A stretch of 64,000 bases of DNA from Nitrospirota bacterium (lineage in GTDB: Bacteria > Nitrospirota > Nitrospiria > Nitrospirales > Nitrospiraceae), in contig CAVPBK010000009.1 in the NCBI GenBank assembly GCA_963701855.1, positions 288,001-352,000 on the forward strand. The letters run 5' to 3'. Shown here piece by piece: positions 1 to 38,084 of this stretch. Positions within the stretch are counted from its first letter, which is position 1. Every line of letters starts with the position of its first letter. The translations under genes and the position numbers were made by a program. The notes below the pieces were generated by a model. It ran no database searches. It worked only from the letters and a program-made list of their open reading frames with translations, and was not told where the DNA came from.

Positions 1-2118
1 TACGTTCACGTTCATGTGATACCCCGTAGCACCAAAAAACGCGTCGAGTATGCCACGTAGGTTCTTGATTCTATCCTCTTCGATCCTCCCAAGGCCCTCC
101 GGCAGTAACGTTGTCGTGAGTGAAATGCCGTCAGCGGCGTCGCGGTATGGAATTTTGGCCACCGAAGCAGCCGATGCATGAACGCCGTGCTTGTCGCGTC
201 CGTGCATCGGATTGGCGCCTGGAGCGAACGGCTGCCCCTTCCTCCGCCCATCCGGGGTGTTGCCGGTATTCTTTCCGTAGACAACATTTGACGTGATGGT
301 CAGGATCGATTGTGTGTGCAGGGCATGTCGATAGGTCGGATATTTCCTCAGCTTCTTCATGAACGTACTGACAACCCAGGTCGCCATCTGGTCGACGCGG
401 TTGTCGTTATTTCCAAACTGCGGGAACTCGCCTTCGGTTTGATAGTCGGTAATCAGGCCCGTTTGATCGCGGATCACGCGGACCTTGGCATATCGGATAG
501 CGGAGAGGCTATCGGCAACCACCGACAGACCTGCCATACCAAACGCCATAGTTCGCAACGGTGCATAATCGTGGAGGGCCATTTCAATCCGCTCATATGC
601 ATATTTGTCGTGCATGTAGTGGATGATATTCATGGCATTGACGTAGACCCCGGCGAGCCAGTCCATCATCGTCTCGAAGCGATCGATCATGTCCTCGATA
701 TCGAGGTACTCGCCCTTGACTGGCTCGGTTGCCGGACCCACCTGCTTGCCGGTGAGTTCATCGCGGCCACCATTGATCGAGTACAAGAGGCATTTTGCCA
801 TATTGGCTCGAGCGCCGAAGAACTGCATTTGTTTGCCGACCAGCATCGGAGAGACACAGCAGGCGATGGCGCCGTCATCCCCCCAGGTACTTCGCATAAT
901 CTCGTCGTTTTCGAATTGAATTGAACTGGTGTCGATCGCCACTTTTGCAGCAAAACTGCGAAATCCATCGGGAAGACGCGGGGAATACCAGATCGTCAGG
1001 TTTGGTTCCGGCGCCGGACCGAGATTGGAGAGCGTTTGCAGATACCGAAAGCTTGTCTTGGTGACGAGTGGCCGTCCGTCATCTCCCATGCCGGCAATCG
1101 ATTCGGTGACCCATGTTGGGTCACCCGCAAACAGTTCATCGTATTCAGGCGTGCGCAAAAAACGAACGATTCGCAGCTTGATGACAAAATCATCGATGAT
1201 TTCCTGCGCCTGCTGTTCCGTGATCGCGCCGGCCGCAAGGTCGCGCTCGAAATAGATATCCAGAAACGTCGAGGTCCGCCCCAAAGACATCGCCGCGCCG
1301 TTCTGCTCTTTCACCGCAGCCAAGTAAGCGAAGTACAGCCACTGAACAGCCTCGCGTGACGTGCGAGCCGGAACGGAGATATCGAACCCGTACTTCGAGG
1401 CCATCTGCTGAAGTTCCTCGAGTGCGCGAATCTGTTCACTGAGCTCTTCGCGGTCCCGAATGATCTCATCGGTGGACATGGCCGAATCGAGGCCGCATTT
1501 CTCTTCCTGCTTTCGTTCAATGAGCCGGGCGACACCGTAGAGGGCAACTCGGCGATAATCGCCGATGATTCGACCTCGACCATAGGCGTCAGGAAGCCCG
1601 GTCAAAATATGCGAACTGCGGCAATTTCTGACGTCCGCCGTGTAGGCATCGAACACGGCTTCGTTATGAGTCTTTCGATATTTGGTAAAGGTCTCAACTA
1701 GATGTGGCTCTGGTTCGTATCCGTATGTCTTCAGCGCGTTGAGAACCATCCGGAATCCGCCGTTTGGCATGATTGCCCGCTTGAGCGGCGCATCGGTTTG
1801 TAGGCCGACGATCACTTCATGATCTCGATCGATGTACCCTGGAGCATGCGCCGTGATGGAGCTGGGAATCTGAGAGATATCGAGTACCCCCTTCTTGCGC
1901 TCCTCCACAAAAAGGTCAGTGAGGATTTTCCAGATCTTCTTGGTACGCTCGGTTGCCGGAGCGAGAAATGAATGATCTCCTTCGTATGGTTTGTAATTCT
2001 GCTGGATAAAGTTGCGAACATTGATTTCCCTTTGCCAAAGACCCGGATTGAATCCCTCCCAGCCTGGAGCTATCTTGGCGCGGTTGGATTCAGGTTTCGC
2101 TGAAACAGAGGTAGCCAT
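1..2118 (-). CDS. pflB: Pyruvate formate-lyase (formate C-acetyltransferase), 3' end runs off the window
   Basis: Not in the ORF track because it has no stop in the window. Manual translation from ATG 2118 (RBS AGGAGGAG) gives [22 protein letters not shown], the active-site Cys pair [20 protein letters not shown] and [11 protein letters not shown], and stays open to base 1. Confidence 0.95.
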
Positions 2119-2134
2119 GGTACTTCTCCTCCTG

Positions 2135-3320
2135 TTAACGCAATTTAAGCAGGTTTGCCGTATGCCGGGCGATCATCAATTCCTCATTGGTGGGGATCAC
2201 CCACACGGAGACCTTGCTTTGGAGCGTCGAGATCCGCGGACCTTTTCGGGCATTTGCCTGCGTATCGAGTGCGACGCCCAACCATGCCGACGCTTCGCAG
2301 ATCCGCTGGCGAATCGCCGGCGAGTTTTCGCCGATGCCGGCGGTAAACACGAGGGCATCGACCCCGCATAGAACGGCGGCGAGTGCACCGATCTCCTTGG
2401 CGGCGCGATAGACAAAGTAGTCCACCGCAAGCCGCGCTTCCGGCTCGGCTCGTCCCAGCAGGTCGCGCATATCGTTGCTGATCCCTGAGATCCCCAAAAG
2501 ACCGGACTTTTTGTACAGCACAGTTTCTACTTCTTTCGCTGAGAGTTTCAGGCCTTGAAAGAGATGCAGCACGACGCCTGGATCGAGCGTGCCGGGCCTC
2601 GTACCCATACAGAGACCATCAAGCGGAGTGAAGCCGAGCGTGCAATCGACGCTTTTCCCTCCTCGCAGCGCGCATAAGCTCGCCCCGCTTCCGAGATGTG
2701 CGACGATGACGCGGGCATTGGCAATTTCTGGAGCGACCTCCGGCAAAACCGACGCGATATATTCGTAAGACAAGCCATGAAAGCCGTATCGTTGCAGACC
2801 TGCTTGGCGAAGGTCACGCGGGAGCGGGATCAGTTCGGCAACGGCGGGTTGTCCACGATGAAAGCTGGTATCGAAGCATGCCACCTGCGGCACATCGGGC
2901 AATCGTTCGGAGACGGCTTCGATGGCTGCCAGATTGTGAGGCTGATGAAGGGGCGCCAGTGGAATCAACTCGCGAAGCTCCGTAAGGACTTTCGGGTTCA
3001 AGATTGTCGGCCCGGCGAAATGCGCCCCACCGTGGACGACGCGATGGCCGACGCCCACCACTCGCGAGCCGCCATATTTCGATCTCAGCCACACCGCGCT
3101 CGCATTTATGGCCTCACGACCGTCGCGAGCGGCAACATCCTGGTTTGCCAAGCGGTTCTCCGTCGGCGTCTTTCACAGAGAGACGAGGTGACGTGCCGAT
3201 TCCTTCGATTTGGCCCCGCGCTTCCACGCGCCAGGCTTCGCCAGCCGGTCGCTGAAACACGCAGAACTTCAGACTCGACGATCCTGCATTGACCACCAGC
3301 CCATAGTCGTCCACGGCCAC
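2135..3320 (-). pseudogene. ackA: Acetate kinase split by a single frameshift near 3150 (true lesion or sequencing error)
   Basis: N-terminus VVNAGSSSLKF in ORF 3114..3320. The rest (GHRVVHGG, APLHQP, FDTSFH, RYGFHGLS, HLGSGAS, FTAGIGEN, IPTNEE) is in ORF 2135..3151, in another frame. Confidence 0.9.
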
Positions 3321-3323
3321 CTC

Positions 3324-4256
3324 CTACGGCCTCTTCCGCCGCGCATGAGCCACCAATACTGCAACGGCACAACTGGCGATCCTGGCACGCACGCTATCGG
3401 CCCGGCTGGTTAGGATAATGGGAACCCGTGCACCCAGGACCATGCCTGCGCTGTCGGCTTTGGCAAGAAAGCTCAATTGCTTGGCAAGCATGTTACCCGC
3501 TTCCAAATCAGGGGCGAGCAAGATGTCGGGATCGCCGGCAACCGCGGATTGAATGCCTTTTGTCTCGGCTGCTTCCTTGCTGATGGCGTTGTCAAATGCC
3601 AGTGGTCCATCCAGGATGCCATTCTTGATCTGCCCACGATCAGCCATCTTGCAGAGCGCCGCCGCATCGATCGTGGCCGGCATTTTTGACGTAACAATTT
3701 CAACCGCGGCGAGGATGGCCACCTTGGGTCTTTCCAGACCCAAAGAGACTGCGAGATCGATTGCGTTCTGGCAGATATCAACCTTGTCCTCCAGACCAGG
3801 CGCGATATTGATCGCGCCGTCCGTAATGAGCAGAGGCTTGTGATAAGTCGGGACATCCATGAGGAAGGCGTGGCTGATGCGGCGTCCCGTGCGCAATCCA
3901 CCCTCGCGCGAGACGACCGCGCCCATGAGCTCATCCGTGTGCAGGCTTCCCTTCATCAGAATCTCAGCTCGACCTTCTCGAATGAGGGCAACAGCCTTCT
4001 CTGCTGCCGCATGGCTGTGCGGTACATCGATGATCTCCAGGTTCTTGAGATCGATGCCGGACGCCGCTGCCGTCTTTCTAATGCTGGCGGCTGGTCCAAC
4101 CAACAGCGGTATGATCAATCCTCGCTGGTACGCTTCGACCGCTCCGCTCAAGGCCGTCGCTTCACAGGGATGTGCCACCGCGGTAGGAATTGGCTCAAGA
4201 TTTTCGCACCGCGCAAGGAGTTGTTCGTATTTTCCTGTTCCAGTGGCATAGGTCAT
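3324..4256 (-). CDS. pta: Phosphate acetyl/butyryltransferase
   Basis: LMKGSLHT, DGPLAFDNAIS, PDLEAGNMLAK and PIILTSRADS motifs; adjacent to ackA. Confidence 0.9.
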   Translation of the reverse strand: MTYATGTGKYEQLLARCENLEPIPTAVAHPCEATALSGAVEAYQRGLIIPLLVGPAASIRKTAAASGIDLKNLEIIDVPHSHAAAEKAVALIREGRAEILMKGSLHTDELMGAVVSREGGLRTGRRISHAFLMDVPTYHKPLLITDGAINIAPGLEDKVDICQNAIDLAVSLGLERPKVAILAAVEIVTSKMPATIDAAALCKMADRGQIKNGILDGPLAFDNAISKEAAETKGIQSAVAGDPDILLAPDLEAGNMLAKQLSFLAKADSAGMVLGARVPIILTSRADSVRARIASCAVAVLVAHARRKRP

Positions 4257-4259
4257 GGC

Positions 4260-5558
4260 TTATCTCCTCCTTGCGTCGGCTGCCGTCGGTGTGGTGCGTG
4301 CTGCCGATCCCGTCTCTTTCAACAACATGGTCAACACGACCGCGATGGCCACGCCATAGAGAAGAGAGACAAAGGTAGACTGGTAATGCTCCGCCTTCAT
4401 TGGCGAAGCTCCCCCTGACGCGGTGTACAGAATCCAACTGAACACCGGTCCGAGTAAGGCGCTGAACGTAAAATTCAGGAAGTTGATCACACCAGTCGCG
4501 GTGCCACCAAAGTGCGGCGGGTTGGCCTCTTTGATCACGGTGTAGGGCAACATCGCCGCACCGGATGCGATGCCGGCGATAAGGCCTACCGAATACGGAG
4601 GGAACAGGCCCGTCTTCCCGTAGAGGATCCAGCCCAGACACGCGAGCAGCACCAGGGAGGCGCTGATGATCACCGGCTTGCGCCGTCCGATTCGATCGGA
4701 AATAAGTCCAAGCAGGGGGCAACCAATGATCCAACCGAAGGGAACTGCGGCCGAGCGCATGACTGCCGAGCCGTACTCCAGACCATGCGCTTCCTGGAGG
4801 TAGCGGACACCCCAAATCATGTCGAAGATCGTTGTCGGGATGAATAGCAACCCGGAGATCACGCCACACAAAATCGACTGCGGATTCTTGAACACGGTTT
4901 TGAAACCTCTGGCCGTGCTCTTCAATCCACTACCGGGCAGTTTGGTCGGTTCGTCTTTCGGAAGGAGGACAAACAAGATTGCGCCAATCAACAAACCGCC
5001 GACTCCCATTCCTGTCCAAAAGATATTCCAGGCTAACCCGTGCCCGATCAGAGGCCCGACGAGGAACTGTCCTGCCGATCCGCCCCCCATTCCAAACATC
5101 TGGGTGGCGCCGATCAACGTGGCGGCACGCGACGGCGAAAAGTTTGTGGTTGCGATATAGATCGCGCCTACAAGCGCAAAGACTCCGCCGGCGCCCTGCA
5201 TGAACCTCCCGACACTCGCGAAATTGTGGTTGCCTGTCGCAAACAGCAACGCCCCAATACCGACGACAGCCGCCGCTCCTGGCAATAGGCGGCGCGGCCC
5301 AAGTCGATCCATCGCCGCTCCAGCGACCAAACTGAAGGGCGAGTATCCGTAATAGAACAAGCCGACGAGGGAAGCGACAGCGAGCGGGCTGATTCCGAAC
5401 GCATCGCTCAGCTCCGGCATCATCACCGCCGGAGCCGAGCGAAGAGCGTACTGGTAGAAATAGTAGATCGCCGTTAACATCCAGGCAATGACAGCGAGAC
5501 GGACGCTCTTGTGTAAATCTCTCTTGCCTGTCACTTCAATAGTGGCTGCCGTTTCCAT
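4260..5558 (-). CDS. MFS transporter
   Basis: About 12 hydrophobic segments; motif A-like GAAMDRLGPRR and GLISDRIGRRK. Confidence 0.9.
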   Translation of the reverse strand: METAATIEVTGKRDLHKSVRLAVIAWMLTAIYYFYQYALRSAPAVMMPELSDAFGISPLAVASLVGLFYYGYSPFSLVAGAAMDRLGPRRLLPGAAAVVGIGALLFATGNHNFASVGRFMQGAGGVFALVGAIYIATTNFSPSRAATLIGATQMFGMGGGSAGQFLVGPLIGHGLAWNIFWTGMGVGGLLIGAILFVLLPKDEPTKLPGSGLKSTARGFKTVFKNPQSILCGVISGLLFIPTTIFDMIWGVRYLQEAHGLEYGSAVMRSAAVPFGWIIGCPLLGLISDRIGRRKPVIISASLVLLACLGWILYGKTGLFPPYSVGLIAGIASGAAMLPYTVIKEANPPHFGGTATGVINFLNFTFSALLGPVFSWILYTASGGASPMKAEHYQSTFVSLLYGVAIAVVLTMLLKETGSAARTTPTAADARRR

Positions 5559-5585
5559 CAGTTCTCCGTCCGTTGCGCGGCTCGA

Positions 5586-7136
5586 TCAACAGAGCGTCAC
5601 GGAGACGGCCAGTCCGGCCTCGCTCGTTTCCTTGTACTTACTGTTCATTTCCTTGGCGGTCTGAGCCATCGCCGTGATCGTGGCGTCCAAATCAACCCGA
5701 TGTCTGCTTTCGATCTCATTGGTGGCGATCACGTAAGCGGTCCAGGCCTTGACGGCGCCGAAAGCGCATCGCTCAATGCACGGGACCTGAACGAATCCGG
5801 CGACCGGGTCGCAGGTCATTCCCAGATGATGTTCCAGCGCCGACTCCGCCGCGTTCTCGACGACCCGGGGACTCGCGTCGTATGCGGTCGTGAGGAGTGC
5901 CGCGGCCATCGCCGACGCGACGCCGATCTCCGCCTGGCAGCCACCCTCGGCGGCAGATAGCGTCGCATTGTGCTTGCACAGGTAACCAATCGCCGCCGCC
6001 GCAAGCATGCCTTGGCGGATCTTATCTGCCGGAACCTTGCGCTGTTCGCTCAGCCCGTACACCAGGGCTGGCATGACTCCGGCGGACCCTCCTGTCGGCG
6101 CGGTGATGACGAGGTGGCCCCGCGCGTTTTCCTCGGACGCCGCCAGCGCCCACGCCGAGACGACACCAATGGCGCGATCCGTCTCGTATTTATCGTCCAT
6201 GGCGCGTTTGAACACGGTTGCCGCCTTGCTGTGCAGCTTGATGGGGCCAGGCAACACGCTGTCTTCCGGAGCACTCAACCCTGACTTCACAGCGGCGATC
6301 ATCGCGTTCGTGATCTTGTCGATGAAGGCATAGACCTCCGCCTCGCTCCTCCCGGGGATCGCCATCTCGTTGGCGAGGATGACTTGCGCAATCGTCAAGT
6401 TGTTTTTCTCCGCGTGCTGCCGAAGTTCTTTCATCGTCGAGAACGGGTACTTCGGCTGGTTTTTCTTCGGAGGCGTATAGCCTTTCCACTCGATGAATCC
6501 GCCGCCCACAGAGTAGTACTCTTGCTCCAGCAGCACATCCTTTCCTGCCAGGAGCTTGCAGGTCATGGTGTTGGGGTGCGGGAAGTCGCCCTTGGGGGCA
6601 TCGTAGACAATGTCCTTGAGACTCACGCTAACGGTCTTGCTGCCGAGCTTCACCGGAAACGACTGGTCAGGCTTATCGCGCAGGCTGTCGAGAAACGCGG
6701 GGTCAACGGTTGCCGGCTCCTTCCCGACCAACCCCGCGAGCGAGGCACGCTCCGTACCGTGCCCTTTGCCCGTCGCACTGAGGCTGCCATACAAGTGAAC
6801 CTTGAGCGCTGTTGCTTTGTCGAGTGTGTCCGCCGGCAGTTTGGTACAGCGCTGGTAGAATTCGTAGGTAATGCGCATCGGGCCGATCGTGTGCGAGCTC
6901 GAGGGACCAGGCCCGACTTTGTAGAATTCGTCCAGCGTCGTCATCACCGGCCCCTTTTTCTCCTTCACGACGTTCAGATCGTTTGAGAGCGGCGGCGGCG
7001 GCCCTGCAGTGGACCGCTTTGTTCTCTCCTCAGCGCTGACCGGTTGACCCAGTATCACCGCAGTTGCGCCGATCAACGCGCTTCGCATTAAGAAAGTGCG
7101 ACGATCGACACCAGGCGGGATTTCTTGCGAAATCAA
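5586..7136 (-). CDS. sdaA: L-serine dehydratase (Fe-S type, fused beta/alpha) with an N-terminal twin-arginine signal; start uncertain
   Basis: GPGPSSSHTIGPM, YGSLSATGKGHGT, APTGGSAGVMP, GGCQAEIG and MTCDPVAGFVQVPCIER; N-terminal DRRTFL followed by a hydrophobic stretch and VSA. Confidence 0.92.
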   Translation of the reverse strand: MISQEIPPGVDRRTFLMRSALIGATAVILGQPVSAEERTKRSTAGPPPPLSNDLNVVKEKKGPVMTTLDEFYKVGPGPSSSHTIGPMRITYEFYQRCTKLPADTLDKATALKVHLYGSLSATGKGHGTERASLAGLVGKEPATVDPAFLDSLRDKPDQSFPVKLGSKTVSVSLKDIVYDAPKGDFPHPNTMTCKLLAGKDVLLEQEYYSVGGGFIEWKGYTPPKKNQPKYPFSTMKELRQHAEKNNLTIAQVILANEMAIPGRSEAEVYAFIDKITNAMIAAVKSGLSAPEDSVLPGPIKLHSKAATVFKRAMDDKYETDRAIGVVSAWALAASEENARGHLVITAPTGGSAGVMPALVYGLSEQRKVPADKIRQGMLAAAAIGYLCKHNATLSAAEGGCQAEIGVASAMAAALLTTAYDASPRVVENAAESALEHHLGMTCDPVAGFVQVPCIERCAFGAVKAWTAYVIATNEIESRHRVDLDATITAMAQTAKEMNSKYKETSEAGLAVSVTLC

Positions 7137-7359
7137 CCGGTCCGCGCGGCCAAGCGGGCCTTCCTGGCCGGCCTCATGTGTGTGTTCTTCCGAATTGAGA
7201 TCACCAGCCTCGTGTCTTTTCTTTGTTCCTCATGTCGTCCCTCCTTCGTTTGAAGCAATGTAATCTCGTTCGTCAAACTCGTCGACTACCGTGATGAGCG
7301 CAGCCGCCGTTGTTGTGAGCACGGCGCATGTGCGACGCCGGTTCACGGCCGACAAAAGG

Positions 7360-8907
7360 TCACCAATTCCCCAGATTCACGAGGTCGTACTGCAAGACGA
7401 AGTTAAGCCGGATGTCGTCCCCTCGCTCCCCGGTTTTCACCGTATGTTGCCCCCACAAGAGTCCGCCCCCGACCGTGAATCCTGCACCAGGACTGTACAT
7501 CAGATTGCCTTCCGCATACTGGGTGCTCGTGAAGTTACTGTTCGAGTTGAGGGTTACCGTAGGAGACGCGATGTTCGTCGTACTGACATGCAAATATCCA
7601 TAGGTGAATGACGAGCGCCATCGTTCAGCCCAAAAATGCTGATACGAACCAAACGCTCCCCATGCCGGCAGAGCGACAATCGTCCCGTCCGGCTTGACGC
7701 CGACGTCTAGGCCGGTCCCCTCCCCGAGGTCGTTTATGTACCGGGCAATCCCGTCCCCGATGATGCCTTGGACCATGACGTTGTCTTTCTTATAGACCGT
7801 CGCGGCAGCCGACACCATGCCGCCCCATCCGAAGACATGTTTATCAGTCCCCGGAGTGACAAAGCCGCCCAGGTCGCGGAACAACCAGGCATTCTGAATG
7901 TGGAATCGGCTCTGCTCATGGCGGTATCGAAGGACAAAGTCAGGGATCGGGTTGTTTACATTGATGGCTGTGGTTCCACTCGTGACGGTCCCTGGCATTT
8001 GCGTGTTCGGTTGCTCGACAGACACCGCAATATTGTTCTCCTTGTTCATCGCGTAGGTATACCGGACCTGCGGTTGCAGTCTGAAGATCCAGGAGTTCGG
8101 TCCTTCGAAGTCCACCGTGTCCGGAATGGCATCCTGGTCTCCCCAGGCAGTCCAGGTCTGTCCGACGAGTACATTCTGCCATTGACCATAAAAATGGCGC
8201 AGCCGGAAGCTGTTCGTCGTATTCGGGCCGTTGTTGAAGTCGTTCTCATAATAGATGCGCAGGGGGCCGTAATTCGTGTTGTTCCTGATTTCGAAGCTGA
8301 TTCTCGACGGAGCCACACTCATGCTGGTGTTGTCGCTTCCCGGATTGGGACCGGTTGGAATCGATGAGGTCACAAATTTGGACGTATTGCCGGCTGGGCT
8401 GAAATCATGAATCACGTCCGTCCTCGCGAACCCCCCGAGCCGCAACATGGTCTCGGTTCCAGGCAGGCGAAAGAATCCCCTGAGTTGAGGATCGAACGGT
8501 GCATTGTCAAGCCGCGGATCGGCGTAGTTGTCTTGGCGCAGCATCCCGCGCTCGCGTTCATGCTCGGGAACTTCGGCGCTCGTACCCGGCGTCGGACGCT
8601 GGTATCCCTCCTCACGGTTGACGTTGCTCTCGCCAACCTTAGGTGAGCCGCGATCTTTCTTCAGTTCCTCCACCATCTGTTCGAGAGACTTCACCCGTTC
8701 TTTTAACGATTCATCCGACGCCGCTGATGGCGCTGGGCCTTGTCCCGGTTTACCCTGATCTTGGGCCACGGAAAAGGTCGGACACAACAGAACAAGAATT
8801 GAGGCGATCGCGAGAATCGTCCGGACTATCGAGGACACGGGACGCCTTCGTGCGTCGGACGGACAGGTTTCGACCATCTCCTTGTTGGTTAGTTGTGATC
8901 TTCTCAT
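7360..8907 (-). CDS. DcaP-like trimeric outer-membrane porin
   Basis: Signal peptide, short coiled coil, then LRLGGFARTD, FRLRHFYG, GQTWT and PDTVDFEGP...RLQPQVRY; beta-rich C-terminus; RBS AAGGAG before ATG 8907. Confidence 0.8.
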   Translation of the reverse strand: MRRSQLTNKEMVETCPSDARRRPVSSIVRTILAIASILVLLCPTFSVAQDQGKPGQGPAPSAASDESLKERVKSLEQMVEELKKDRGSPKVGESNVNREEGYQRPTPGTSAEVPEHERERGMLRQDNYADPRLDNAPFDPQLRGFFRLPGTETMLRLGGFARTDVIHDFSPAGNTSKFVTSSIPTGPNPGSDNTSMSVAPSRISFEIRNNTNYGPLRIYYENDFNNGPNTTNSFRLRHFYGQWQNVLVGQTWTAWGDQDAIPDTVDFEGPNSWIFRLQPQVRYTYAMNKENNIAVSVEQPNTQMPGTVTSGTTAINVNNPIPDFVLRYRHEQSRFHIQNAWLFRDLGGFVTPGTDKHVFGWGGMVSAAATVYKKDNVMVQGIIGDGIARYINDLGEGTGLDVGVKPDGTIVALPAWGAFGSYQHFWAERWRSSFTYGYLHVSTTNIASPTVTLNSNSNFTSTQYAEGNLMYSPGAGFTVGGGLLWGQHTVKTGERGDDIRLNFVLQYDLVNLGNW

Positions 8908-8999
8908 GGCAATTCTCCTTGTCGTTGAGGTCACTGCCCACTGTCTGCCGCAGCCTTGCATGGCTGAATGGGAAAGGATCCCTTGAATCGCAGATCGAG

Positions 9000-9145
9000 C
9001 GGTGTCTTGTCTGGTCTCGGCTCAGCATGGGGGTCCTGCCGGAGCATCATCTCAGGAACGAGTCCGAGGACACGGTCAATCGTGGCATTAGGCTCATCGT
9101 CACGATAAGCACCCTAGTTCTAGGCTTGGTCACGGCCTCAGCCAG
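9000..9145 (+). pseudogene. Fragment of a DUF4239-like membrane protein
   Basis: LPEHHLRNESEDTVNRGIRLIVTISTLVLGLVTASA resembles the N-terminal part of that family; no start, and it ends abruptly against the next fragment. Confidence 0.5.
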
Positions 9146-9340
9146 TCAAAGGAATCTGAGCGGCCAGAAATTCTTGGCCTCCGCGTCGGTGAGAATCCTA
9201 TTGGCGGCGACGATGAGCTTCTTGTCGGCTTTGATTTTCTCTTTCAGAATGTCCATGTTCATCTGCTCAGCCTGCTGAGCATGAACCGGCCCTAGAATGA
9301 GAAACGACAGCATGAGCATCCCGATCTGCAGAATCATCAT
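9146..9340 (-). pseudogene. 3'-truncated paralog of the exported helical protein at 41164..41643
   Basis: MMILQIG...QMNMDILKEKIKADKKLIVAAN..LTDAEAKNFWPL matches the first ~60 aa of the 41.2-41.6 kb gene, then stops. Confidence 0.8.
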
Positions 9341-9404
9341 GATACGTTCTCCTCCCTTGGTTAATTCACGACCGGCCATAGACATATCTCGACGGTAGCT
9401 ACGC

Positions 9405-10043
9405 CTACAACACCGGCTTAATCTCGACGAATGGGGTGACCTCTTTCACCCCTTCGGTGGCGCGGATGATGCGCAGGACGCTCTGCCGCTCATCCTCGCT
9501 CCGAGACCGGCCGATGAGGTACACGACGTTCCGGACCGACCGCCACCGGTAGTTGACCGAGTTGATACCGCGAGTCGAGATCAACTGCGCGTTGATCTTC
9601 GTTTCGATCCAAAAATCGTTGACGGTCTGTTCGACGCCGCTTTTCTGGGAAGCGTCCTTGTTCTTGGCCGCCTCCCGCCGCTGTTCCTGCTCCGCCTTGG
9701 ACACAAGCTGGATCTCGTCGTAGATCTTTCGTATGCGGGGATCCGACTGCTGGACTAGTTGGACCACGTCCTTCTTCATCTTGGCATCGTCGAGCGTGCC
9801 AGTCAGCATCACCCGCTGCTCCCAGACGTCCGTCTTGACGTCGAGCAGCAGACTTTTATCCTTGTCAGCCAGGGCGGAGAGGATACCGGTGTCGATCTTC
9901 GCATCAAGGATATGATCGTCATTGGAACGATCTTCCAGGGCCGTTTTGGCCGCTTGCTCATAGACCTGCATGCATCCGGTCGCGCCGAGCACGGCGACCC
10001 CCGCCACAGTGACCAAGACCATCCGTGCAATACATTGATTCAT
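9405..10043 (-). CDS. Dual BON-domain lipoprotein
   Basis: Lipobox-like LGATGC; two BON-like repeats (DHILDAKID...VMLTG; DFWIETKIN...VYLIG...EGVKEV). Confidence 0.8.
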   Translation of the reverse strand: MNQCIARMVLVTVAGVAVLGATGCMQVYEQAAKTALEDRSNDDHILDAKIDTGILSALADKDKSLLLDVKTDVWEQRVMLTGTLDDAKMKKDVVQLVQQSDPRIRKIYDEIQLVSKAEQEQRREAAKNKDASQKSGVEQTVNDFWIETKINAQLISTRGINSVNYRWRSVRNVVYLIGRSRSEDERQSVLRIIRATEGVKEVTPFVEIKPVL

Positions 10044-10077
10044 GATGTCCTCCCCTTTTGTTGAGTGCATGGCATTA

Positions 10078-30168: not shown

Positions 30169-31086
30169 GTGCGCATGACACTGCACGGCACCCTCTACGA
30201 GATCACGAATTTCACATCGTTCTTCCAGACGCATGTGCTGGAGTCGCGCCGGCCAGATCCGAATAGCATCCGCCCGATCAAGAATGGCTGGATCAGACTC
30301 TGCCGAGGCGAAGGAGCCCATTCAGGATCTCCATTGCCCCTCCCTTGTCGAACGGATGACAACGGGCGTTTCGATTTGGACCTGTCACAAGTCCCCGATG
30401 CCCCGGTGTTCGTGGTCGCGGGCGGCTCAGAAAAACTGCGGGAGAATTATTGGTATCGATCCGCATGCATTCAACTCGTCACGCTCAACCAGCATGCACA
30501 AGAAATCTACCTGGCCCGCGCCACGATTTCAGACGAATCCGGATTTTCTCAAGCCGAACTCGCCGGCCTGTTGGAACAGACGAAAAAACAGGTCGCCGAC
30601 CTCGAACGGATTCACGGAACGATTACCCAGAGTGGTATCGCCCTACACTGTGGAGGAAAAGGCGGGAAGGCATCGTGCCGGCTCCTGCTCAATCCCGATC
30701 AGTCCGGTAATCTGAAGTCGATCCTGCACCATTCTGTTGAGGACTTTCGCTTGGAACTGCCCGGTCCGTCGTGGCTGGTCGGACTCCTCGTTTCAAGGGA
30801 CGCGATCGAAACATCCATCCGAAACGGCCTCCGGAATCTCGCGCGTGAGATCGACGAACGGCTGCGCCTCCGTGCCATCGCGTTTTTCACGGACCAGGTT
30901 AAGACGATGGACCCCGCGCTTGACACCAAGCTGGCCGGCGCGGCCACGCTGACCGTGGAACGTCTACGATACCCTGTTGTGGCACGTCAAAGCGGAGCAA
31001 GCGGCGGCGACCGAGCCATCGCGGGTGATGTGTTCCTGGGTTTTCCCCAGACCTTTCGAGGGGCAGGACACCAGAAAACATCGTAA
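30169..31086 (+). CDS. Hypothetical protein
   Basis: 305-aa ORF with globular-looking composition; no recognised motif. Confidence 0.65.
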   Translation: MRMTLHGTLYEITNFTSFFQTHVLESRRPDPNSIRPIKNGWIRLCRGEGAHSGSPLPLPCRTDDNGRFDLDLSQVPDAPVFVVAGGSEKLRENYWYRSACIQLVTLNQHAQEIYLARATISDESGFSQAELAGLLEQTKKQVADLERIHGTITQSGIALHCGGKGGKASCRLLLNPDQSGNLKSILHHSVEDFRLELPGPSWLVGLLVSRDAIETSIRNGLRNLAREIDERLRLRAIAFFTDQVKTMDPALDTKLAGAATLTVERLRYPVVARQSGASGGDRAIAGDVFLGFPQTFRGAGHQKTS

Positions 31087-31205
31087 GAGTAGGGTGAATC
31101 CCCTGCTGAGACAGTTTGATATGAGCACACATGTTGGATCAATGGATGATGCTCCTCACCGGCGAGATCATATGCTAAGCCCTCTGCAAATTCTTCGCAG
31201 ATTTG

Positions 31206-31457
31206 CCCGCAGTATTCATGACGGTTCGTCGCGAAATCGCAGAGCCGCGTCGCGAGACAGGCGCGCGAAGCCTAGGGGACTGGCTCCGCCGTCTGTGGCG
31301 GTGCCTGTCCCGCTTCCAGAACGGGGACAGGCACCAAAAAGAAGGGGTGCCAGTCCCCAACAGTACGTGGAGGGTCCGAGGAGCGAGCCCGCTGGCCGAA
31401 GGCTCGTCGTAGCAACGGATCAGCGATTGCAGCAGAAGTGTTCATGAATAATGCGGG
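31206..31457. repeat. MITE/REPIN-like element with CCCGCA(G/T)TATTCATGA terminal inverted repeats and internal GGGACAGGCACC-type hairpins
   Basis: cccgcagtattcatga...tcatgaataatgcggg; internal ggggactggctcc/ggtgcctgtccc and ggggacaggcacc/ggtgccagtcccc. Confidence 0.65.
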
Positions 31458-33497: not shown

Positions 33498-35936
33498 TCA
33501 ATCCGTCAATCGCTTGCGCGCGTGAGCCTCGTGCACGGCCTGCTGCTCTGCCTCGGTGCTCGCCGATTTCATTTCTTTCAAGTCAATCGTGACGCTGTTG
33601 ATCTTGCCGGTGAATTTGTTGTTGCCTTCCTTGTAGTCCTCCGTCACCGGCGTCCCGTCGTCTGCCCCGACATCGGCGCCTTCATCGGCTGAGAAGATGC
33701 AACATTGCGTGTGCTCGATCCGCCCTTCGGCCACCTTCTGGCCGTTAACAAAGATCGTTCCGATCCCACCCTTGCCCATACCAGGGCCATCGGAGGCAAA
33801 CTCAAACCGAATGGTTGCCTTACCGGCCGGCAACGGTTGTGCCGCAGCCACGTTGAACCGCTGCAAGCCAAGGAAGTTGTAGGTGTATATCGGCTTCCCA
33901 TCTTTCATATAGAGACTCCAGCCACCGAACCTGCCGGCCTGGGCGAGGATCACACCGTTGGCGCCGCCCTGGGGGATCTCCACATCGGCGCTGATTGTAT
34001 GCGACTTGTTCTTCAGATTGATGAAGACGTGCTCCGACATCCCGATCATCCCCTCGTAAACCGTCAGAGAGGTGCGACTCCCCATAAGATCAGGCCGCCC
34101 GGCCATGGCAGGGATAAGGCGCTCAAAGATGCGGTCATCGATGGGCAGCACCCGGTTCTTGACCGCTTCCTTCATAAAGAGGTCTTGCAGCTCCTTGAGC
34201 TTGGGCAAATTCTTCGTGGCCAGATTGTTCACCAGGCTGAAATCATTACGCGTGTCGTAGAGCTCCCACTTGTCATCGGCAAGCGCTGTGCGTGGCTTCG
34301 GCTCCCACGGTGCCCGGTGCACAGTACCGGCCAACCAGCCATCGGAGTAGATGGCCCGGTTGCCCATGATCTCGAAGTACTGCACCAGGTGCCGGCTGTT
34401 CGCCATGGGCTTGGCAAACGTGTAGACCATGCTCACTCCTTCGATCGGCTCCTGTGGCGTGCCATTCACGACTTTCGGCTCGGGTAACTCCGCCGCTTCC
34501 AGGACTGTCGGCGCAATATCGATGACATGATGGAACTGCGCGCGCACCTCGCCTTTTGCCTTGATGCGCTTGGGCCAATGAACCACCATCCCGTTGCGTG
34601 TACCGCCGAAACTGGAGGCGATCTGCTTGGTCCATGTAAACGGCGTATCGCCCGCGACAGCCCACCCGGCGGCCATGTGGGGATAGGACATCGGGCCACC
34701 GAGCTCATCATAATGTTTCAGAATGTCCTGAACGGTTTCGCGCACACCGTTGAAGTAGGTCATCTCGTTGAACAGGCCATTCATGCCGCCTTCGGCACTC
34801 GTGCCATTGTCGCCGAGGATGTAAAAGATCAAGGTATTATCCATCTGGCCCGTCTGCTCGAGGGCCTGGATCAGCCGGCCAATCTCCGTGTCCGTGTGTT
34901 CGCCGAAGCCGGCAAATATCTCCATCTGACGAGTAAAGAGTTTCTTCTCCTCATCCGAGAGCTTGTCCCAATCCTTGATGGCTTCCGGCTTGGGTGCGAG
35001 CTTCGTCCCCTGCGGGACGACACCCAGCTTGATCTGACGGGCCAGGGTCTCTTCGCGGAAAGTGTCCCACCCGCCATCGAACTGGCCCTTGTACTTGGCG
35101 ATCCATTCCTTCGGGACATGATGGGGCGCATGAGTGGAACCGGGGGCGAAATACATGAAGAACGGCTTGTCTGGCGTGAGCGATTTCTGGTACTGCATCC
35201 AGTGGATCGCCTGGTTGGTCATGTCGGTCATGAAGTGATAGTTCGGATCTTTTGGCAACTCCACCTGCGTCAATCCGTCATAGACCAGCGGCGCCCATTG
35301 GTTGGTCTCGCCGCCGAGAAAGCCGTAGAACTTATCGAAGCCGGAGCGGGTTGGCCAGCGGTCCGTCGGGCCGGAGGGACTGAGTTCCCAGGCGGCAGTC
35401 TCATGCGACTTGCCGAAGGCAGCCGTGCTATAGCCGTTCAGCCGCAACACCTCGGCCAGCGGCGCGACATTGTTGGGTCGGCTCCCGGTATTGCCGAGGA
35501 ACGCAGTGGAAATCTCCGTGATCGCCCCCATGTTGTTCATGTGATGATTACGGCCACTCAGCAACGCAGCTCGAGTCGGCGAACAGAGCGCCGTTGTATG
35601 GAAATGGTTGTAGCGCAAGCCGTTGTCGGCGAGTCGCTCGACCGTCGGCATATGAATCGGGCCTCCGAACGCACTGGACATACCGAACCCCATGTCGTCG
35701 ATCAGCACGACAAGCACGTTCGGCGCGCCGGCCGGCGCCTTGACCTCAAAGCGCAGCGGGGCTGTGGCCTTGCGAGCGTCGATCTCCGTGATCGCTGGGC
35801 GCTTGGGTTCCGGAATCGGCAACACCGTCCGATCCAGCTTGTCCGCCGCGTGAGCTGGAATAGAAATAGTTGCCGTCACCGCAGACAACCCCATCAGCAT
35901 GATGGTGAGCGCAACCAACCTTGTCTTTTGCCGCAT
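33498..35936 (-). CDS. Exported Cys-type arylsulfatase (long form)
   Basis: PNVLVVLIDDMG, CSPTR, LSGR, FGKSH and HVIDIAPT; C-terminal beta domain. Confidence 0.93.
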   Translation of the reverse strand: MRQKTRLVALTIMLMGLSAVTATISIPAHAADKLDRTVLPIPEPKRPAITEIDARKATAPLRFEVKAPAGAPNVLVVLIDDMGFGMSSAFGGPIHMPTVERLADNGLRYNHFHTTALCSPTRAALLSGRNHHMNNMGAITEISTAFLGNTGSRPNNVAPLAEVLRLNGYSTAAFGKSHETAAWELSPSGPTDRWPTRSGFDKFYGFLGGETNQWAPLVYDGLTQVELPKDPNYHFMTDMTNQAIHWMQYQKSLTPDKPFFMYFAPGSTHAPHHVPKEWIAKYKGQFDGGWDTFREETLARQIKLGVVPQGTKLAPKPEAIKDWDKLSDEEKKLFTRQMEIFAGFGEHTDTEIGRLIQALEQTGQMDNTLIFYILGDNGTSAEGGMNGLFNEMTYFNGVRETVQDILKHYDELGGPMSYPHMAAGWAVAGDTPFTWTKQIASSFGGTRNGMVVHWPKRIKAKGEVRAQFHHVIDIAPTVLEAAELPEPKVVNGTPQEPIEGVSMVYTFAKPMANSRHLVQYFEIMGNRAIYSDGWLAGTVHRAPWEPKPRTALADDKWELYDTRNDFSLVNNLATKNLPKLKELQDLFMKEAVKNRVLPIDDRIFERLIPAMAGRPDLMGSRTSLTVYEGMIGMSEHVFINLKNKSHTISADVEIPQGGANGVILAQAGRFGGWSLYMKDGKPIYTYNFLGLQRFNVAAAQPLPAGKATIRFEFASDGPGMGKGGIGTIFVNGQKVAEGRIEHTQCCIFSADEGADVGADDGTPVTEDYKEGNNKFTGKINSVTIDLKEMKSASTEAEQQAVHEAHARKRLTD

Positions 35937-36036
35937 CGTCTCTCTCCTCCTCTTTAAGATTCATCGTTGCGAAGCTCATCTGTCATTCATCAGGCCTGAC
36001 CCAATGACTCCTTGATGACTGAGATGGGAACAGGAA

Positions 36037-36747
36037 TTAATCGATCCAGCCCTGTTGCTGGAATTTCGGTTTGATCTTCTCCGCAATTTCCTTCGCAATC
36101 GCCTTCGCTCGGCCCTCAATCTTACTGCTGCCGCTGTACTCCCCATAGGCTTTGGCCCCGCCGCCGACGATGAGGCCCACGGGGTTACCGGTGGCAATCA
36201 AGGCGACAACCCCCAATGCACCCCCTGGAGTTTTAGCTCCAGTGGAATCTAGGGAGCCGGATCCGAGTTTTCGTAGTCCCTGAGCCGTCATCTGGAAGCC
36301 CTCGGCCGCTACCCTCAACTCGGATGCCCCGGAGCCAAATCCGAGGGCGACGCGTTTTGTCGCGTCGCCCTCGTCGACCGAGAGGAGATAGCCCCGAAAT
36401 ACAAGGTCATTGATTTGTGGCTTCGTACCACTCGAAGCCCGCGCTGCCGGCAGTCCCATGCCGCGGATCTCCTCGGCCAGCTGCGTCGCAATGGCTTCGC
36501 CCACCTTCCGGCCGGTCTCGATTTGCTCGGCGGTTTGGGGCGTAGGGTGCTCGGCATGCTTGCCGGCGAGTGCGGAATCGGCTGGAACCTCGGCGGACGT
36601 CGCGGCGAAGTCATACACCCAGATATGACCGGGGCGAGGGATCTTTCCCCCCATATATTCGTGCCGGTCACTTACCTCGGTTGAGGCGCACCCGGCAGCA
36701 ACCGCCATGGCCAACATACACAATCCGATGCGTGTAAAGGATTGCAT
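36037..36747 (-). CDS. DUF4410-like lipoprotein
   Basis: Lipobox AAGC; VYDF and VDEGDATKRVALGFGSG. Confidence 0.7.
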   Translation of the reverse strand: MQSFTRIGLCMLAMAVAAGCASTEVSDRHEYMGGKIPRPGHIWVYDFAATSAEVPADSALAGKHAEHPTPQTAEQIETGRKVGEAIATQLAEEIRGMGLPAARASSGTKPQINDLVFRGYLLSVDEGDATKRVALGFGSGASELRVAAEGFQMTAQGLRKLGSGSLDSTGAKTPGGALGVVALIATGNPVGLIVGGGAKAYGEYSGSSKIEGRAKAIAKEIAEKIKPKFQQQGWID

Positions 36748-36902
36748 GGCAGACCTCCTAGGATGAGACGGATACTGATACCGCGCGTACTGTCTTCTAT
36801 TGAGACACTACGCGCAATGTTTAAAGCGTCGCAACAGCATCGAAGGAGCCCGTCAGTCCACAACGCCGTTCAGGATAGCCATTTGGCTGTGTCATAAGCC
36901 TA

Positions 36903-38084
36903 TCAGTGCGCATCGCGCACCAGCCGGAATCCGACATGGTTCGTGCCCGTATCTGGCTCGCCCTTGCCGCGACCGCCTGCGATGTAGCGCGCGCAATACT
37001 GATCGGTGCAGAGGAATGAGCCGCCCCTGTGAACTTTCTTTTTGACACCTGGCTCGCTGGGATCGAGACTGTCGACCGGCCCTTGTGGATTACGCGTGAA
37101 CGCTCCTTCCTCGGCTAGCGTCTGATAGTAATCATGCCGGTACCAATCGCTGGTCCATTCCCAGACGTTCCCGGCCATGTCGTATAGCCCGTAGGCATTG
37201 GGAGGGAACGACGCCACCGGCGCTGCGCGCTCGTGGCCGTCTTCTTTCGTATTCTTCTCAGGGAAGTGACCTTGAAATGTGTTGGCCATGAACTTGCCGC
37301 CCGGTTTCAACTCGTCGCCCCAGGCATAGGGTTTTCGCTCCAACCCGCCGCGCTGCGCGAATTCGAACTCGGCTTCCGTCGGCACACGCTTCCCTGCCCA
37401 TTTGGCATAGGCCAATGCATCCTGGTATGCGATGTGGGCGACTGGATAGTTCCCGCGATCCTTGATCGTGCTATTCGGTCCCTCCGGATGCCGCCAGTTG
37501 GCACCCTTCACATAGCTCCACCATTGGAAATGGTCGTTCAGTTTTACGGCATGATCAGGCGGCGAGAAGACAACCGACCCGGCCACGAGATTTTCCGGTG
37601 GCGCGCCGGGGAAATCCTCCGCGCGCGGCGCCTGCTCGGCAACCGTCACATACTTGGTTGCCTTCACGAATTTAGCGAACTGGTCGTTCGTGACTTCGGT
37701 CTTGTCCATCCAGAATCCATCCACAAAAACACGATGCCACGGTTGAGCGTCGGGAAACTCCTCCGCCCCCATCCAGAACTCGCCGCCGGGAATCCAGACC
37801 ATGCCTTCCGGCGCCGGACCAGGAGGAGGCGGAACTTTCGTGCGCGGTGAGTCCCCGGACAACTGGGCTGATTGGCTCGGGACTGGGCTCGGTTGCGGAG
37901 TGACGGCCGCGGCGCCGCGGCCGGCCTTCGCAGCGGAAATGCCCATGTCGCAAGTCATGCCGGACTTCGGCGCTGTTTCGACCGACGGAGAAGTGTTGCC
38001 GGAGCTATACCACCAAGCGGTCAGGACGATGCTTGAGCACAGAGGCAACCAAATCCTGATGAGAGATGTGCGTGTCATGTTCAT
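36903..38084 (-). CDS. Formylglycine-generating enzyme family protein
   Basis: GMVWIPGGEF.MG, PTEAEFE, GLYDMAGNVWEW, RGGSFLCTDQYCARY and HVGFR. Confidence 0.93.
   Translation of the reverse strand: MNMTRTSLIRIWLPLCSSIVLTAWWYSSGNTSPSVETAPKSGMTCDMGISAAKAGRGAAAVTPQPSPVPSQSAQLSGDSPRTKVPPPPGPAPEGMVWIPGGEFWMGAEEFPDAQPWHRVFVDGFWMDKTEVTNDQFAKFVKATKYVTVAEQAPRAEDFPGAPPENLVAGSVVFSPPDHAVKLNDHFQWWSYVKGANWRHPEGPNSTIKDRGNYPVAHIAYQDALAYAKWAGKRVPTEAEFEFAQRGGLERKPYAWGDELKPGGKFMANTFQGHFPEKNTKEDGHERAAPVASFPPNAYGLYDMAGNVWEWTSDWYRHDYYQTLAEEGAFTRNPQGPVDSLDPSEPGVKKKVHRGGSFLCTDQYCARYIAGGRGKGEPDTGTNHVGFRLVRDAH

Follow-up and report, generated by a model that had tools for sequence, protein, structure and literature searches.

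We describe a cluster of serine-fermentation genes at the left end of a 64,000-nucleotide (nt) stretch of a Nitrospirota genome (G000:C9:288001-352000, called here the window; unless marked otherwise, coordinates are those of the window). The cluster is likely to be a mobile cassette of six genes, sdaA-MFS-pta-ackA-pflB-pflA, which would provide a comammox (complete ammonia-oxidizing) Nitrospira with substrate-level ATP from serine without oxygen. Its first enzyme, the iron-sulfur L-serine dehydratase SdaA, would be exported by the twin-arginine translocation (Tat) pathway. The case for this reading comes from a conserved signal at the N-terminus of SdaA, from the recurrence of the same gene order in several phyla and from the comparison of the locus with that of a genome of the same genus. 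Two single-base frame breaks in the assembled sequence, one in ackA and the other ahead of sdaA, complicate it.

The serine dehydratase, its signal and its gene cluster

The porin, sdaA, major facilitator superfamily (MFS) transporter, pta, ackA and pflB genes are all located on the minus strand. This same-strand order had been proposed in a sequence-only reading of the window and is borne out by the gene calls and profile matches. The features of the cluster are the following:

7360..8961, minus strand: DcaP-like outer-membrane porin (Pfam DcaP, PF19577, 51 bits, cut-off 27; Porin_2, 50.6 bits)
7231..7247, minus strand: probable true start of sdaA, formed by GAAGGAGG (7247..7240), a 6-nt spacer and ATG (7233..7231)
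5586..7136, minus strand: sdaA, single-chain [4Fe-4S] L-serine dehydratase, frame of 516 amino acids (aa) (TIGR00720, 415.2 bits, cut-off 345.1)
7032..7136, minus strand: Tat-type signal peptide, residues 1-35 of the open frame, with the twin arginines (RR) at 7103..7098 and a predicted signal-peptidase I site after VSA
6942..7031, minus strand: Pro/Ala-rich linker and conserved N-terminal extension of the mature enzyme (L..DLNVVK..KGPV), residues 36-65
5586..6941, minus strand: catalytic part of SdaA (beta and alpha domains), residues 66-516 and stop codon (Pfam SDH_beta and SDH_alpha)
4260..5558, minus strand: MFS transporter, cargo unassigned (Pfam MFS_1, 129 bits)
3324..4256, minus strand: pta, short form, of the PTA_PTB family (PTA_PTB, 142 bits; NF008852, 518 bits, cut-off 413)
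2135..3314, minus strand: ackA, with a GTG start at 3314 behind AGGAGG (PF00871, 347 bits; TIGR00016, 345 bits, cut-off 293)
1..2118, minus strand: pflB, the first 706 of 755 residues being in the window (PFL-like, 695 bits, and Gly_radical; TIGR01255, 1054 bits, cut-off 994)

SdaA carries the SDH_beta (PF03315, 141 bits) and SDH_alpha (PF03313, 234 bits) domains in one polypeptide. Its residues 66-516 align to residues 21-476 of the L-serine dehydratase of L. pneumophila (PDB 4RQO, E 2e-93), the motifs GCQ, TCDP and PCIER coincide column for column, and the chain ends in Cys. The roles of the cluster-binding cysteines and of the C-terminal Cys are taken from the work on 4RQO; C400, C442, C453 and C516 are invariant in all 44 aligned proteins. 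By family, then, SdaA is a type 2 [4Fe-4S] L-serine dehydratase, with L-serine as its presumed substrate. It shares with SdaA, SdaB and TdcG of E. coli and with the L. pneumophila enzyme the beta and alpha domains in one chain, the cysteine motifs and the C-terminal Cys, but differs from all of them in an N-terminal addition of 65 residues, or about 97 if translation begins at ATG 7233. Within this addition the n-region is long and acidic, the DRRxF motif is invariant, and a hydrophobic stretch, a signal-peptidase site and a Pro/Ala linker are also present. The seven ordinary SdaA proteins found in Nitrospiraceae are 40-41% identical to the window protein and do not have the extension. Since the window sdaA is the sole SDH_alpha match in the genome, which is 97% complete, the cell would have no cytoplasmic copy of the enzyme.

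The sequence-only reading had pointed to DRRTFL, a hydrophobic stretch and VSA ahead of the catalytic domain. These elements were indeed found at residues 11-35 of the 516-aa frame, as DRRTFLM followed by RSALIGATAVILGQPVSA, and all of the sequence before residue 66 lies outside the part that aligns to 4RQO. Cleavage sites were read by eye and with a regular expression of our own, not by a trained predictor. The NCBIfam model of the Tat signal, TIGR01409, scored 18.6 bits on the window peptide against a cut-off of 16.7; among 12 N-terminal peptides, ten were listed by this model and four exceeded the cut-off. In an AlphaFold2 model of the protein (mean predicted local distance difference test, pLDDT, 74.9) residues 12-29 form a lone helix, followed by a low-confidence linker (low at residues 43-66). 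As for the export machinery, two TatC matches and four matches to the TatA/B/E family were identified in the host genome.

Relatives of the window SdaA were collected in a scan of one genome per species, which gave at least 553, and the best 80 loci (69-91% identical to the query) were studied. In 76 of these loci RR is followed by F or I; of the four without the motif, three are cut off by a contig start and one is interrupted. An alignment of 44 complete proteins showed D11, R12, R13, F15, R18 and A20 to be invariant. The hydrophobic stretch is closed in 32 loci by a lipobox Cys, for example in (I/M)(T/N)GC, whereas 44 loci have no Cys at that position and mostly read G-R-x-x-S-A-(E/Q)-E. 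Two alternative signal-peptidase motifs at one place are what would be predicted for an export signal, and they are hard to explain for a cytoplasmic protein. An ATG is located 23-55 codons ahead of RR in the related loci, and the acidic n-region is itself conserved, with the pattern DPL..T..L(I/V)S.E(I/V)P.G.DRR.

The codons of the signal were also compared between the window and L001, the locus of its closest relative. Signal residues 5-36 show 12.5 synonymous changes over 25.3 sites and 3.5 non-synonymous changes over 70.7 sites, that is, per-site rates of 0.49 and 0.05, respectively, while the corresponding rates in the catalytic domain are 0.36 and 0.04. The ratio of non-synonymous to synonymous rates in the signal is thus about 0.1 and equals that of the catalytic domain, and the low non-synonymous rate indicates that the region is translated and under purifying selection. 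On these grounds the Tat-type signal is real, translated and conserved, and SdaA would actually be exported. A twin-arginine motif ahead of a pre-folded cluster protein is also found in Tat-exported iron-sulfur proteins (the small subunits of hydrogenases and the ferredoxins of the NrfC/DmsB type, as generally known) and in Tat lipoproteins, and lipobox variants occur in the Tat-type SdaA family as they do in other Tat substrates. In SdaA, however, the passenger is a non-redox amino-acid lyase with an open substrate-binding iron instead of an electron-transfer subunit, and the cassette has no dedicated chaperone gene. A targeting peptide for a bacterial microcompartment was considered for the N-terminus and rejected, as no shell protein was found among the scanned cassette genes and the combination of RR with a lipobox or SA(E/Q)E fits export.

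Concerning the rest of the cluster, the tight spacing described in the sequence-only reading holds from sdaA to pflB, where the gaps range from 3 to 27 nt (27 nt for sdaA-MFS, 3 nt for MFS-pta, 9 nt for pta-ackA and 16 nt for ackA-pflB), but not between the porin gene and sdaA, which are 126-223 nt apart. The complete pflB encodes 755 aa and ends 149 nt to the left of the window edge; at full length it matches TIGR01255 with 1135 bits and has no internal stop. A pflA gene, which that reading had suggested looking for to the left of the window, is the next open reading frame (ORF), directly behind pflB: it encodes 273 aa and matches Radical_SAM and Fer4_12, a match at the family level only. The porin has a signal peptide followed by an N-terminal coiled-coil-like stretch.

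Two frame breaks in ackA and ahead of sdaA

Two frame breaks, and a doubtful start codon of sdaA, had been overlooked in the sequence-only reading. The first 54 codons of ackA run from GTG 3314 to a stop at about 3116, and the C-terminal ORF (2135..3151, 338 codons), which covers positions 57-392 of the Pfam profile, is in another frame. This configuration corresponds to a surplus base at about 3150-3152. In the case of sdaA, the only ATG, GTG or TTG codon upstream of RR in the frame is TTG 7136, its ribosome-binding site is poor, and the same codon reads TTA in L001. The L001 gene has instead an in-frame ATG with a good ribosome-binding site 43 codons ahead of RR. The window ATG 7233 behind GAAGGAGG matches this start, and a surplus base near 7212, overlooked before, throws it out of the sdaA frame. 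TTG 7136 is therefore probably not the true start of sdaA, and ATG 7233 is the likelier one.

Logan contigs of four soil sequencing runs from four studies (X1-X4) were aligned to positions 2000-7400. With about 98-99% similarity to the window, these contigs represent close strains and not the same assembly. The letter at 3150 is absent in the contigs of X1, X2 and X3, and the letter at 7212 is absent in those of X1 and X3, X2 and X4 having no cover there; each omission brings the frame back. Where the window has CTTG in ackA, X1-X3 have CTG and X4 has TTG, as if letter 3152 were missing from it. Since CTG and TTG both encode Leu, the surplus base of the window appears to come from the merging of two synonymous alleles in the consensus. 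Because near-identical soil contigs do not have them, both frame breaks are probably consensus errors.

Two further irregularities of this kind were observed. Compared with the window, X1 and X2 show compensating indels at the end of the MFS gene (+C at 4263 and -1 at 4277) that recode its last few codons, which could be strain variation or another consensus problem. Elsewhere in the window (30169-31447), an ORF of 305 aa and one of 156 aa are located on the same strand but in different frames and share about 110 nt, an arrangement that could also come from a single-base break; the 305-aa ORF, the first of the pair, had no Pfam match at 1e-8.

The host, the insertion site and related loci in other bacteria

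The host genome measures 4.30 Mb in 15 contigs, with a G+C content (GC) of 0.555. It contains an amoC-amoA-amoB operon, confirmed with Pfam, whose AmoA is 88-99% identical to those of a set of Nitrospira metagenome-assembled genomes (MAGs) that includes CG24A, CG24C, RSF3 and 'Rifle_cladeB', and 57-61% identical to those of a second set of Nitrospira MAGs. We take CG24 and RSF3 to belong to clade B and the second set to clade A; the record title 'Rifle_cladeB' supports the clade B label. Judged by this operon and its AmoA, the host is a comammox Nitrospira of the clade B type, and the sequence-only reading, which had raised the case of a nitrifying host, is borne out on this point. The genome also encodes an FdhA match (TIGR01591, 819 bits, cut-off 666) directly beside an FNT channel (PF01226, 244 bits) at G000:C1:84229-87148, so that formate from PflB could be oxidized or exported.

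The enzyme is rare in the family. SdaA of any kind was found in 9 of 121 sampled Nitrospiraceae genomes, and the Tat type in only two, the window's genome and G042, which belongs to another genus; pyruvate formate-lyase (PFL) was present in the same two genomes only. None of ten other genomes of the same genus has any SdaA. No AmoA match was found in G042 or in the genome that holds L001, which leaves the host of the window as the only ammonia oxidizer with the cassette among the genomes examined.

The corresponding locus of G142, an amoA-positive genome of the same genus, has no cassette: the porin gene is followed by a 2.2-kb gap, an aldolase-like gene, ackA2, an ORF of 859 aa and a glycogen-phosphorylase-like gene. 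The flanks of the two genomes are 83-85% identical in DNA, and the cassette has a GC of 0.59-0.61 against 0.555 for the genome. Judged from this comparison, the cassette is a horizontal insertion between the porin gene and the aldolase-like gene (class I, read by eye). The porin of the window is 69% (DNA) and 64% (protein) identical to that of G142, but its identity to the one encoded ahead of sdaA in L001 is 79%; being closer to the latter, it may have arrived with the cassette. In a tree, the Tat-type SdaA proteins form one clade (100% support in the Shimodaira-Hasegawa-like approximate likelihood ratio test, SH-aLRT), far from the seven ordinary Nitrospiraceae SdaA, and inside this clade the phyla are intermixed. 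Rooting this quick tree with an outgroup placed the three rows from Nitrospiraceae most basally in the Tat clade, a position held by no starred branch, and the outgroup branch was very long (1.8 changes per column to either side of the root). The root within the Tat clade is thus unreliable and no donor is named.

Several observations concern the surroundings of the insertion. At about 280-390 nt beyond pflA (G000:C9:286432-286543, about -1568..-1457) two short porin-like pieces adjoin each other, one of 42 nt and one of 70 nt. They match the 3' end and the middle of the porin gene with 81-86% identity and may be an insertion footprint or the rest of a lost second porin copy. A tRNA or att remnant downstream of pflA had been suspected by eye and was discarded, as ARAGORN found none and Rfam gave no match at E up to 1. 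Farther to the left (-11099..-2029), an intact second acetate kinase gene (416 aa) is located beside the ORF of 859 aa and an aldolase-like ORF (class I), together with ORFs like glycogen phosphorylase and phosphoglucomutase; all these names except ackA were read by eye from the translations. The group has the appearance of a resident cluster for fermentation or glycogen metabolism, next to which the cassette was inserted. On the other side, a gene for a BON-domain lipoprotein-like protein (9405-10070) adjoins the porin gene. A search of 30 other genomes of the genus at E 1e-20 did not find it, which indicates that the flank at the porin side is variable too and made the gene of no use as a synteny anchor. 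Apart from the cluster, the window contains a sulfatase gene (812 aa) near one for a maturase of the formylglycine-generating-enzyme type (393 aa), with a DUF4410 gene between them (33498-38084).

According to their record titles, the 80 related loci belong to Acidobacteriota (62), Pseudomonadota (9) and, for the rest, to Planctomycetota, Myxococcota, Nitrospirota, Verrucomicrobiota, Binatota and one genome labelled as a cyanobacterium. Based on tblastn searches, and with loci truncated at contig ends included in the counts, MFS was matched in 45 of them, pta in 38, ackA in 41, pflB in 41, pflA in 37 and a window-like porin in 21. Where present, the MFS, pta, ackA, pflB and pflA genes keep the order of the window, so the synteny that the sequence-only reading had proposed to look for recurs, from sdaA to pflA, in about half of the 80 loci and in several phyla. 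The gene directly upstream of sdaA varied among 20 cassette-bearing loci (DUF2950, PPK2, malic enzyme and others) and was DcaP-like in one. Because of these variable neighbors, the conserved core is sdaA to pflA without the porin. The entry of serine through this particular porin, also part of that reading, fits poorly with these counts, a window-like porin being found in just the 21 loci given above and the upstream neighbors being otherwise variable.

Other neighbors of Tat-type sdaA carry export signals. RidA, a protein that hydrolyses or deaminates the enamine/imine product of serine dehydratases, is encoded in or beside the cluster in seven loci (L035:9580-10014, L024, L026, L043, L047, L062 and L071), either beside sdaA or between pflB and pflA, and by inspection all seven copies have Sec-type signal peptides. 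A tblastn search of the window's genome found no signal-bearing RidA. Asparaginases with signal peptides adjoin Tat-type sdaA in 10 of the 80 loci, and aspartases are located near it in 10 loci. Of eight aspartases inspected, four have signal peptides, all of them from Pyrinomonadaceae (Lyase_1 and FumaraseC_C; L007:9561-11066, L012:4149-5600, L019:6458-7909 and L067:2529-3989), whereas the copies of Bryobacteraceae have none. The aspartate ammonia-lyase of Pyrinomonadaceae is a second normally cytoplasmic deaminase that looks exported. These signal-bearing RidA, asparaginase and aspartase neighbors argue for chemistry outside the cytoplasm.

A different partner was observed in loci without PFL genes. 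In most of the 16 such loci examined, a secreted protein of about 500 aa, named here unk500, is encoded directly downstream of sdaA. It is present with at least 48% identity in 25 of the 80 loci (28 if three weak matches are included), and one of these, L019, also has PFL genes. Members of this family (L017:9612-11150 and homologues) measure about 450-590 aa, have a Sec-type signal peptide and gave no Pfam match at 1e-6; ten copies from Acidobacteriota are 61-82% identical to each other. The AlphaFold2 model of unk500 is poor (pLDDT 36.6, too poor for a fold search) yet almost all beta-strand, and the protein is probably an outer-membrane barrel, as far as this model can tell. Homology to the DcaP-like porin was considered and dismissed, as hhalign gave a probability of 0.1 and no profile similarity. 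No unk500 gene was found in the window's genome.

Proposed working of the cassette, alternatives and meaning

The cassette could work as follows. The [4Fe-4S] cluster would be inserted into SdaA in the cytoplasm, the folded holoenzyme would be carried by Tat across the inner membrane, and signal peptidase I would cut after VSA; in the 32 relatives with a lipobox SdaA would be lipidated instead. Serine would enter the periplasm via outer-membrane channels and be converted there by SdaA to pyruvate and ammonium. The MFS transporter would import the pyruvate, its putative cargo. PflB, activated by PflA, would then convert pyruvate to acetyl-CoA and formate, and Pta and AckA would turn acetyl-CoA into acetate with the gain of one ATP, the formate being oxidized by the formate dehydrogenase of the host or exported. 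In the host this would serve as an anoxic maintenance metabolism, and the ammonium would be left in the compartment faced by ammonia monooxygenase, which is generally held to face the periplasm. PFL and the iron-sulfur class of serine dehydratases are both oxygen-sensitive, so the cassette would fit anoxic episodes in soil. Its genes may be co-transcribed, as the short gaps and the recurring order indirectly indicate.

Several observations weigh against this reading. The MFS transporter has no informative relative: no sequence relative was found in the PDB, its best NCBIfam match (TIGR00893, of the anion:cation symporter type) reached 62 bits, far under the cut-off, and its neighbors in the Atlas have automatic names only, such as 'MFSD1 family'. 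No FNR-type box (TTGAT-N4-ATCAA with at most two mismatches) was identified in 7137-7359 or 8962-9404; over the whole window the same scan for FNR/CRP-type boxes gave 35 matches against 23 expected. Among the runs with contigs that matched this stretch, none was an RNA run. A sigma-70 promoter scan of 1..9600 returned no sites, and terminator-like sites in the same region were at chance level. Of the Tat prediction suggested by the sequence-only reading, only the TIGR01409 part was positive: Pfam TAT_signal (PF10518, cut-off 22.7) did not match the window peptide and reached 8-9 bits in two of the 12 peptides. The c-region of the window signal has Q where most relatives carry a basic residue. 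Iron-sulfur L-serine dehydratases are oxygen-labile and the periplasm has no known cluster repair, and such an enzyme in the periplasm is awkward for an aerobic nitrifier. Finally, in the window as assembled ackA is interrupted and sdaA is out of frame with its likely start, so the cassette could be broken in this strain.

Some of these points could mean that the N-terminal extension is not an export signal and that the enzyme is cytoplasmic, with the MFS transporter importing serine; the extension might then regulate the enzyme, or the enzyme might be held at the inner side of the membrane. The non-significant Pfam score, the unusually long (23-55 residues) and acidic n-region before RR and the apparent fragility of a periplasmic iron-sulfur enzyme in an aerobe would agree with this, and to our knowledge every characterized SdaA, SdaB and TdcG is cytoplasmic. 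We consider it very unlikely, however, because the lipobox Cys of 32 loci and the SA(E/Q)E of most of the other 44 are placed at the same distance from RR and would be useless in the cytoplasm, TIGR01409 scores above its cut-off, all seven neighboring RidA genes encode Sec signals, and the commonest alternative neighbor is a protein of the outer-membrane type. It is also conceivable that both surplus bases are real and reflect a strain-specific decay of the horizontal acquisition, in which case AckA would be truncated, SdaA would start poorly or not at all and the proposed pathway would be idle here. Two disruptive bases occur within about 4 kb while all five long ORFs of the adjoining 12 kb on the left stay open, the exact strain is in none of the runs (the best contigs are 1-2% off the window), and a second, intact ackA lies 3 kb to the left. 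Such a decay seems unlikely in view of the contigs, since the base at 3150 is absent in three studies and that at 7212 in two, and CTTG in the window against CTG or TTG in the contigs looks like allele merging. Moreover, no further stops occur in the four unbroken genes or in either half of the broken ones, and all of these are 87-94% identical to their Nitrospiraceae counterparts.

An alternative of another kind accepts the export of SdaA but assigns it mainly to nitrogen supply: the enzyme would release ammonia in the periplasm from serine or a related hydroxy-amino acid, and PFL would merely dispose of the carbon skeleton. Roughly half of the 80 loci have no match to pflB, pta or ackA, from which it appears that the export signal is older or wider than the link to fermentation; 25 loci pair Tat-type sdaA with the secreted all-beta protein, only one of them having PFL genes as well; some loci add a signal-bearing asparaginase or aspartase; and the host oxidizes ammonia. 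Yet every Nitrospiraceae genome found to have the enzyme also has PFL, the two other cassette-bearing genomes of this family have no AmoA match, and ammonia monooxygenase needs the oxygen that, as generally known, inactivates this class of enzymes. We therefore regard a main role in nitrogen supply as rather doubtful. A bolder version of the cassette's role would join both functions: the comammox bacterium would make its own nitrification substrate from an amino acid through periplasmic SdaA and gain ATP through PFL when oxygen is gone, thus coupling ammonification, nitrification and fermentation in one cell, as part of a widespread and unrecognized extracytoplasmic deamination in soil bacteria. 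This idea is tentative and we would not expect it to hold in full. Fermentation of serine by a mobile cassette with a Tat-exported first enzyme is the reading that we favor.

In its logic the cassette is closest, among known systems, to the E. coli operon tdcABCDEFG, which serves the anaerobic breakdown of threonine and serine to a short-chain acid and ATP. By analogy, both have an iron-sulfur dehydratase (TdcG), an acetate/propionate kinase (TdcD), a keto-acid formate-lyase of the PFL type (TdcE) and a transporter, and TdcF, of the RidA family, is matched by the RidA of seven related loci. Unlike in tdc, export signals are found on the cassette dehydratase and on any RidA that accompanies it; transport is by an MFS protein (of the anion-symporter type) instead of an amino-acid permease; the cassette includes pta and pflA, while a pyridoxal-phosphate dehydratase and a TdcA/TdcR regulator are absent from it; and the cassette is found across several phyla. 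The conversion of an amino acid outside the cytoplasm with import of the product is also generally known for asparaginase II (AnsB) and for the gamma-glutamyltranspeptidase and exported AnsB of Campylobacter. Those enzymes, however, are cofactor-free and Sec-exported, whereas SdaA is an oxygen-sensitive iron-sulfur enzyme on the Tat route and releases a keto acid instead of another amino acid.

In a literature search outside the subscription journals, and judged by titles, no paper was found on a serine dehydratase with a Tat signal, on serine dehydratase together with PFL in Acidobacteria, on serine dehydratase or PFL in comammox bacteria, or on PFL in Nitrospira; some abstracts name the organism, or serine dehydratase, alone. 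Where PMC12817590 uses such terms, they are unrelated. What we report is a putative new localization variant of a known enzyme, a mobile fermentation cassette and an unexpected host, and the window contributes the comammox host and the mapped insertion site. For comammox Nitrospira, the cassette adds a PFL fermentation route for anoxic survival and perhaps a direct way to obtain ammonia from organic nitrogen; neither is reported in the papers searched. Iron-sulfur L-serine dehydratases are textbook cytoplasmic enzymes. If the Tat-type SdaA is exported, and in many species lipid-anchored, this would apply to at least 553 places in species-representative genomes of about seven phyla, and many soil bacteria would deaminate serine outside the cytoplasm. 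If this is true, models of amino-acid turnover, of ammonium release and of the damage caused by reactive enamines would change.

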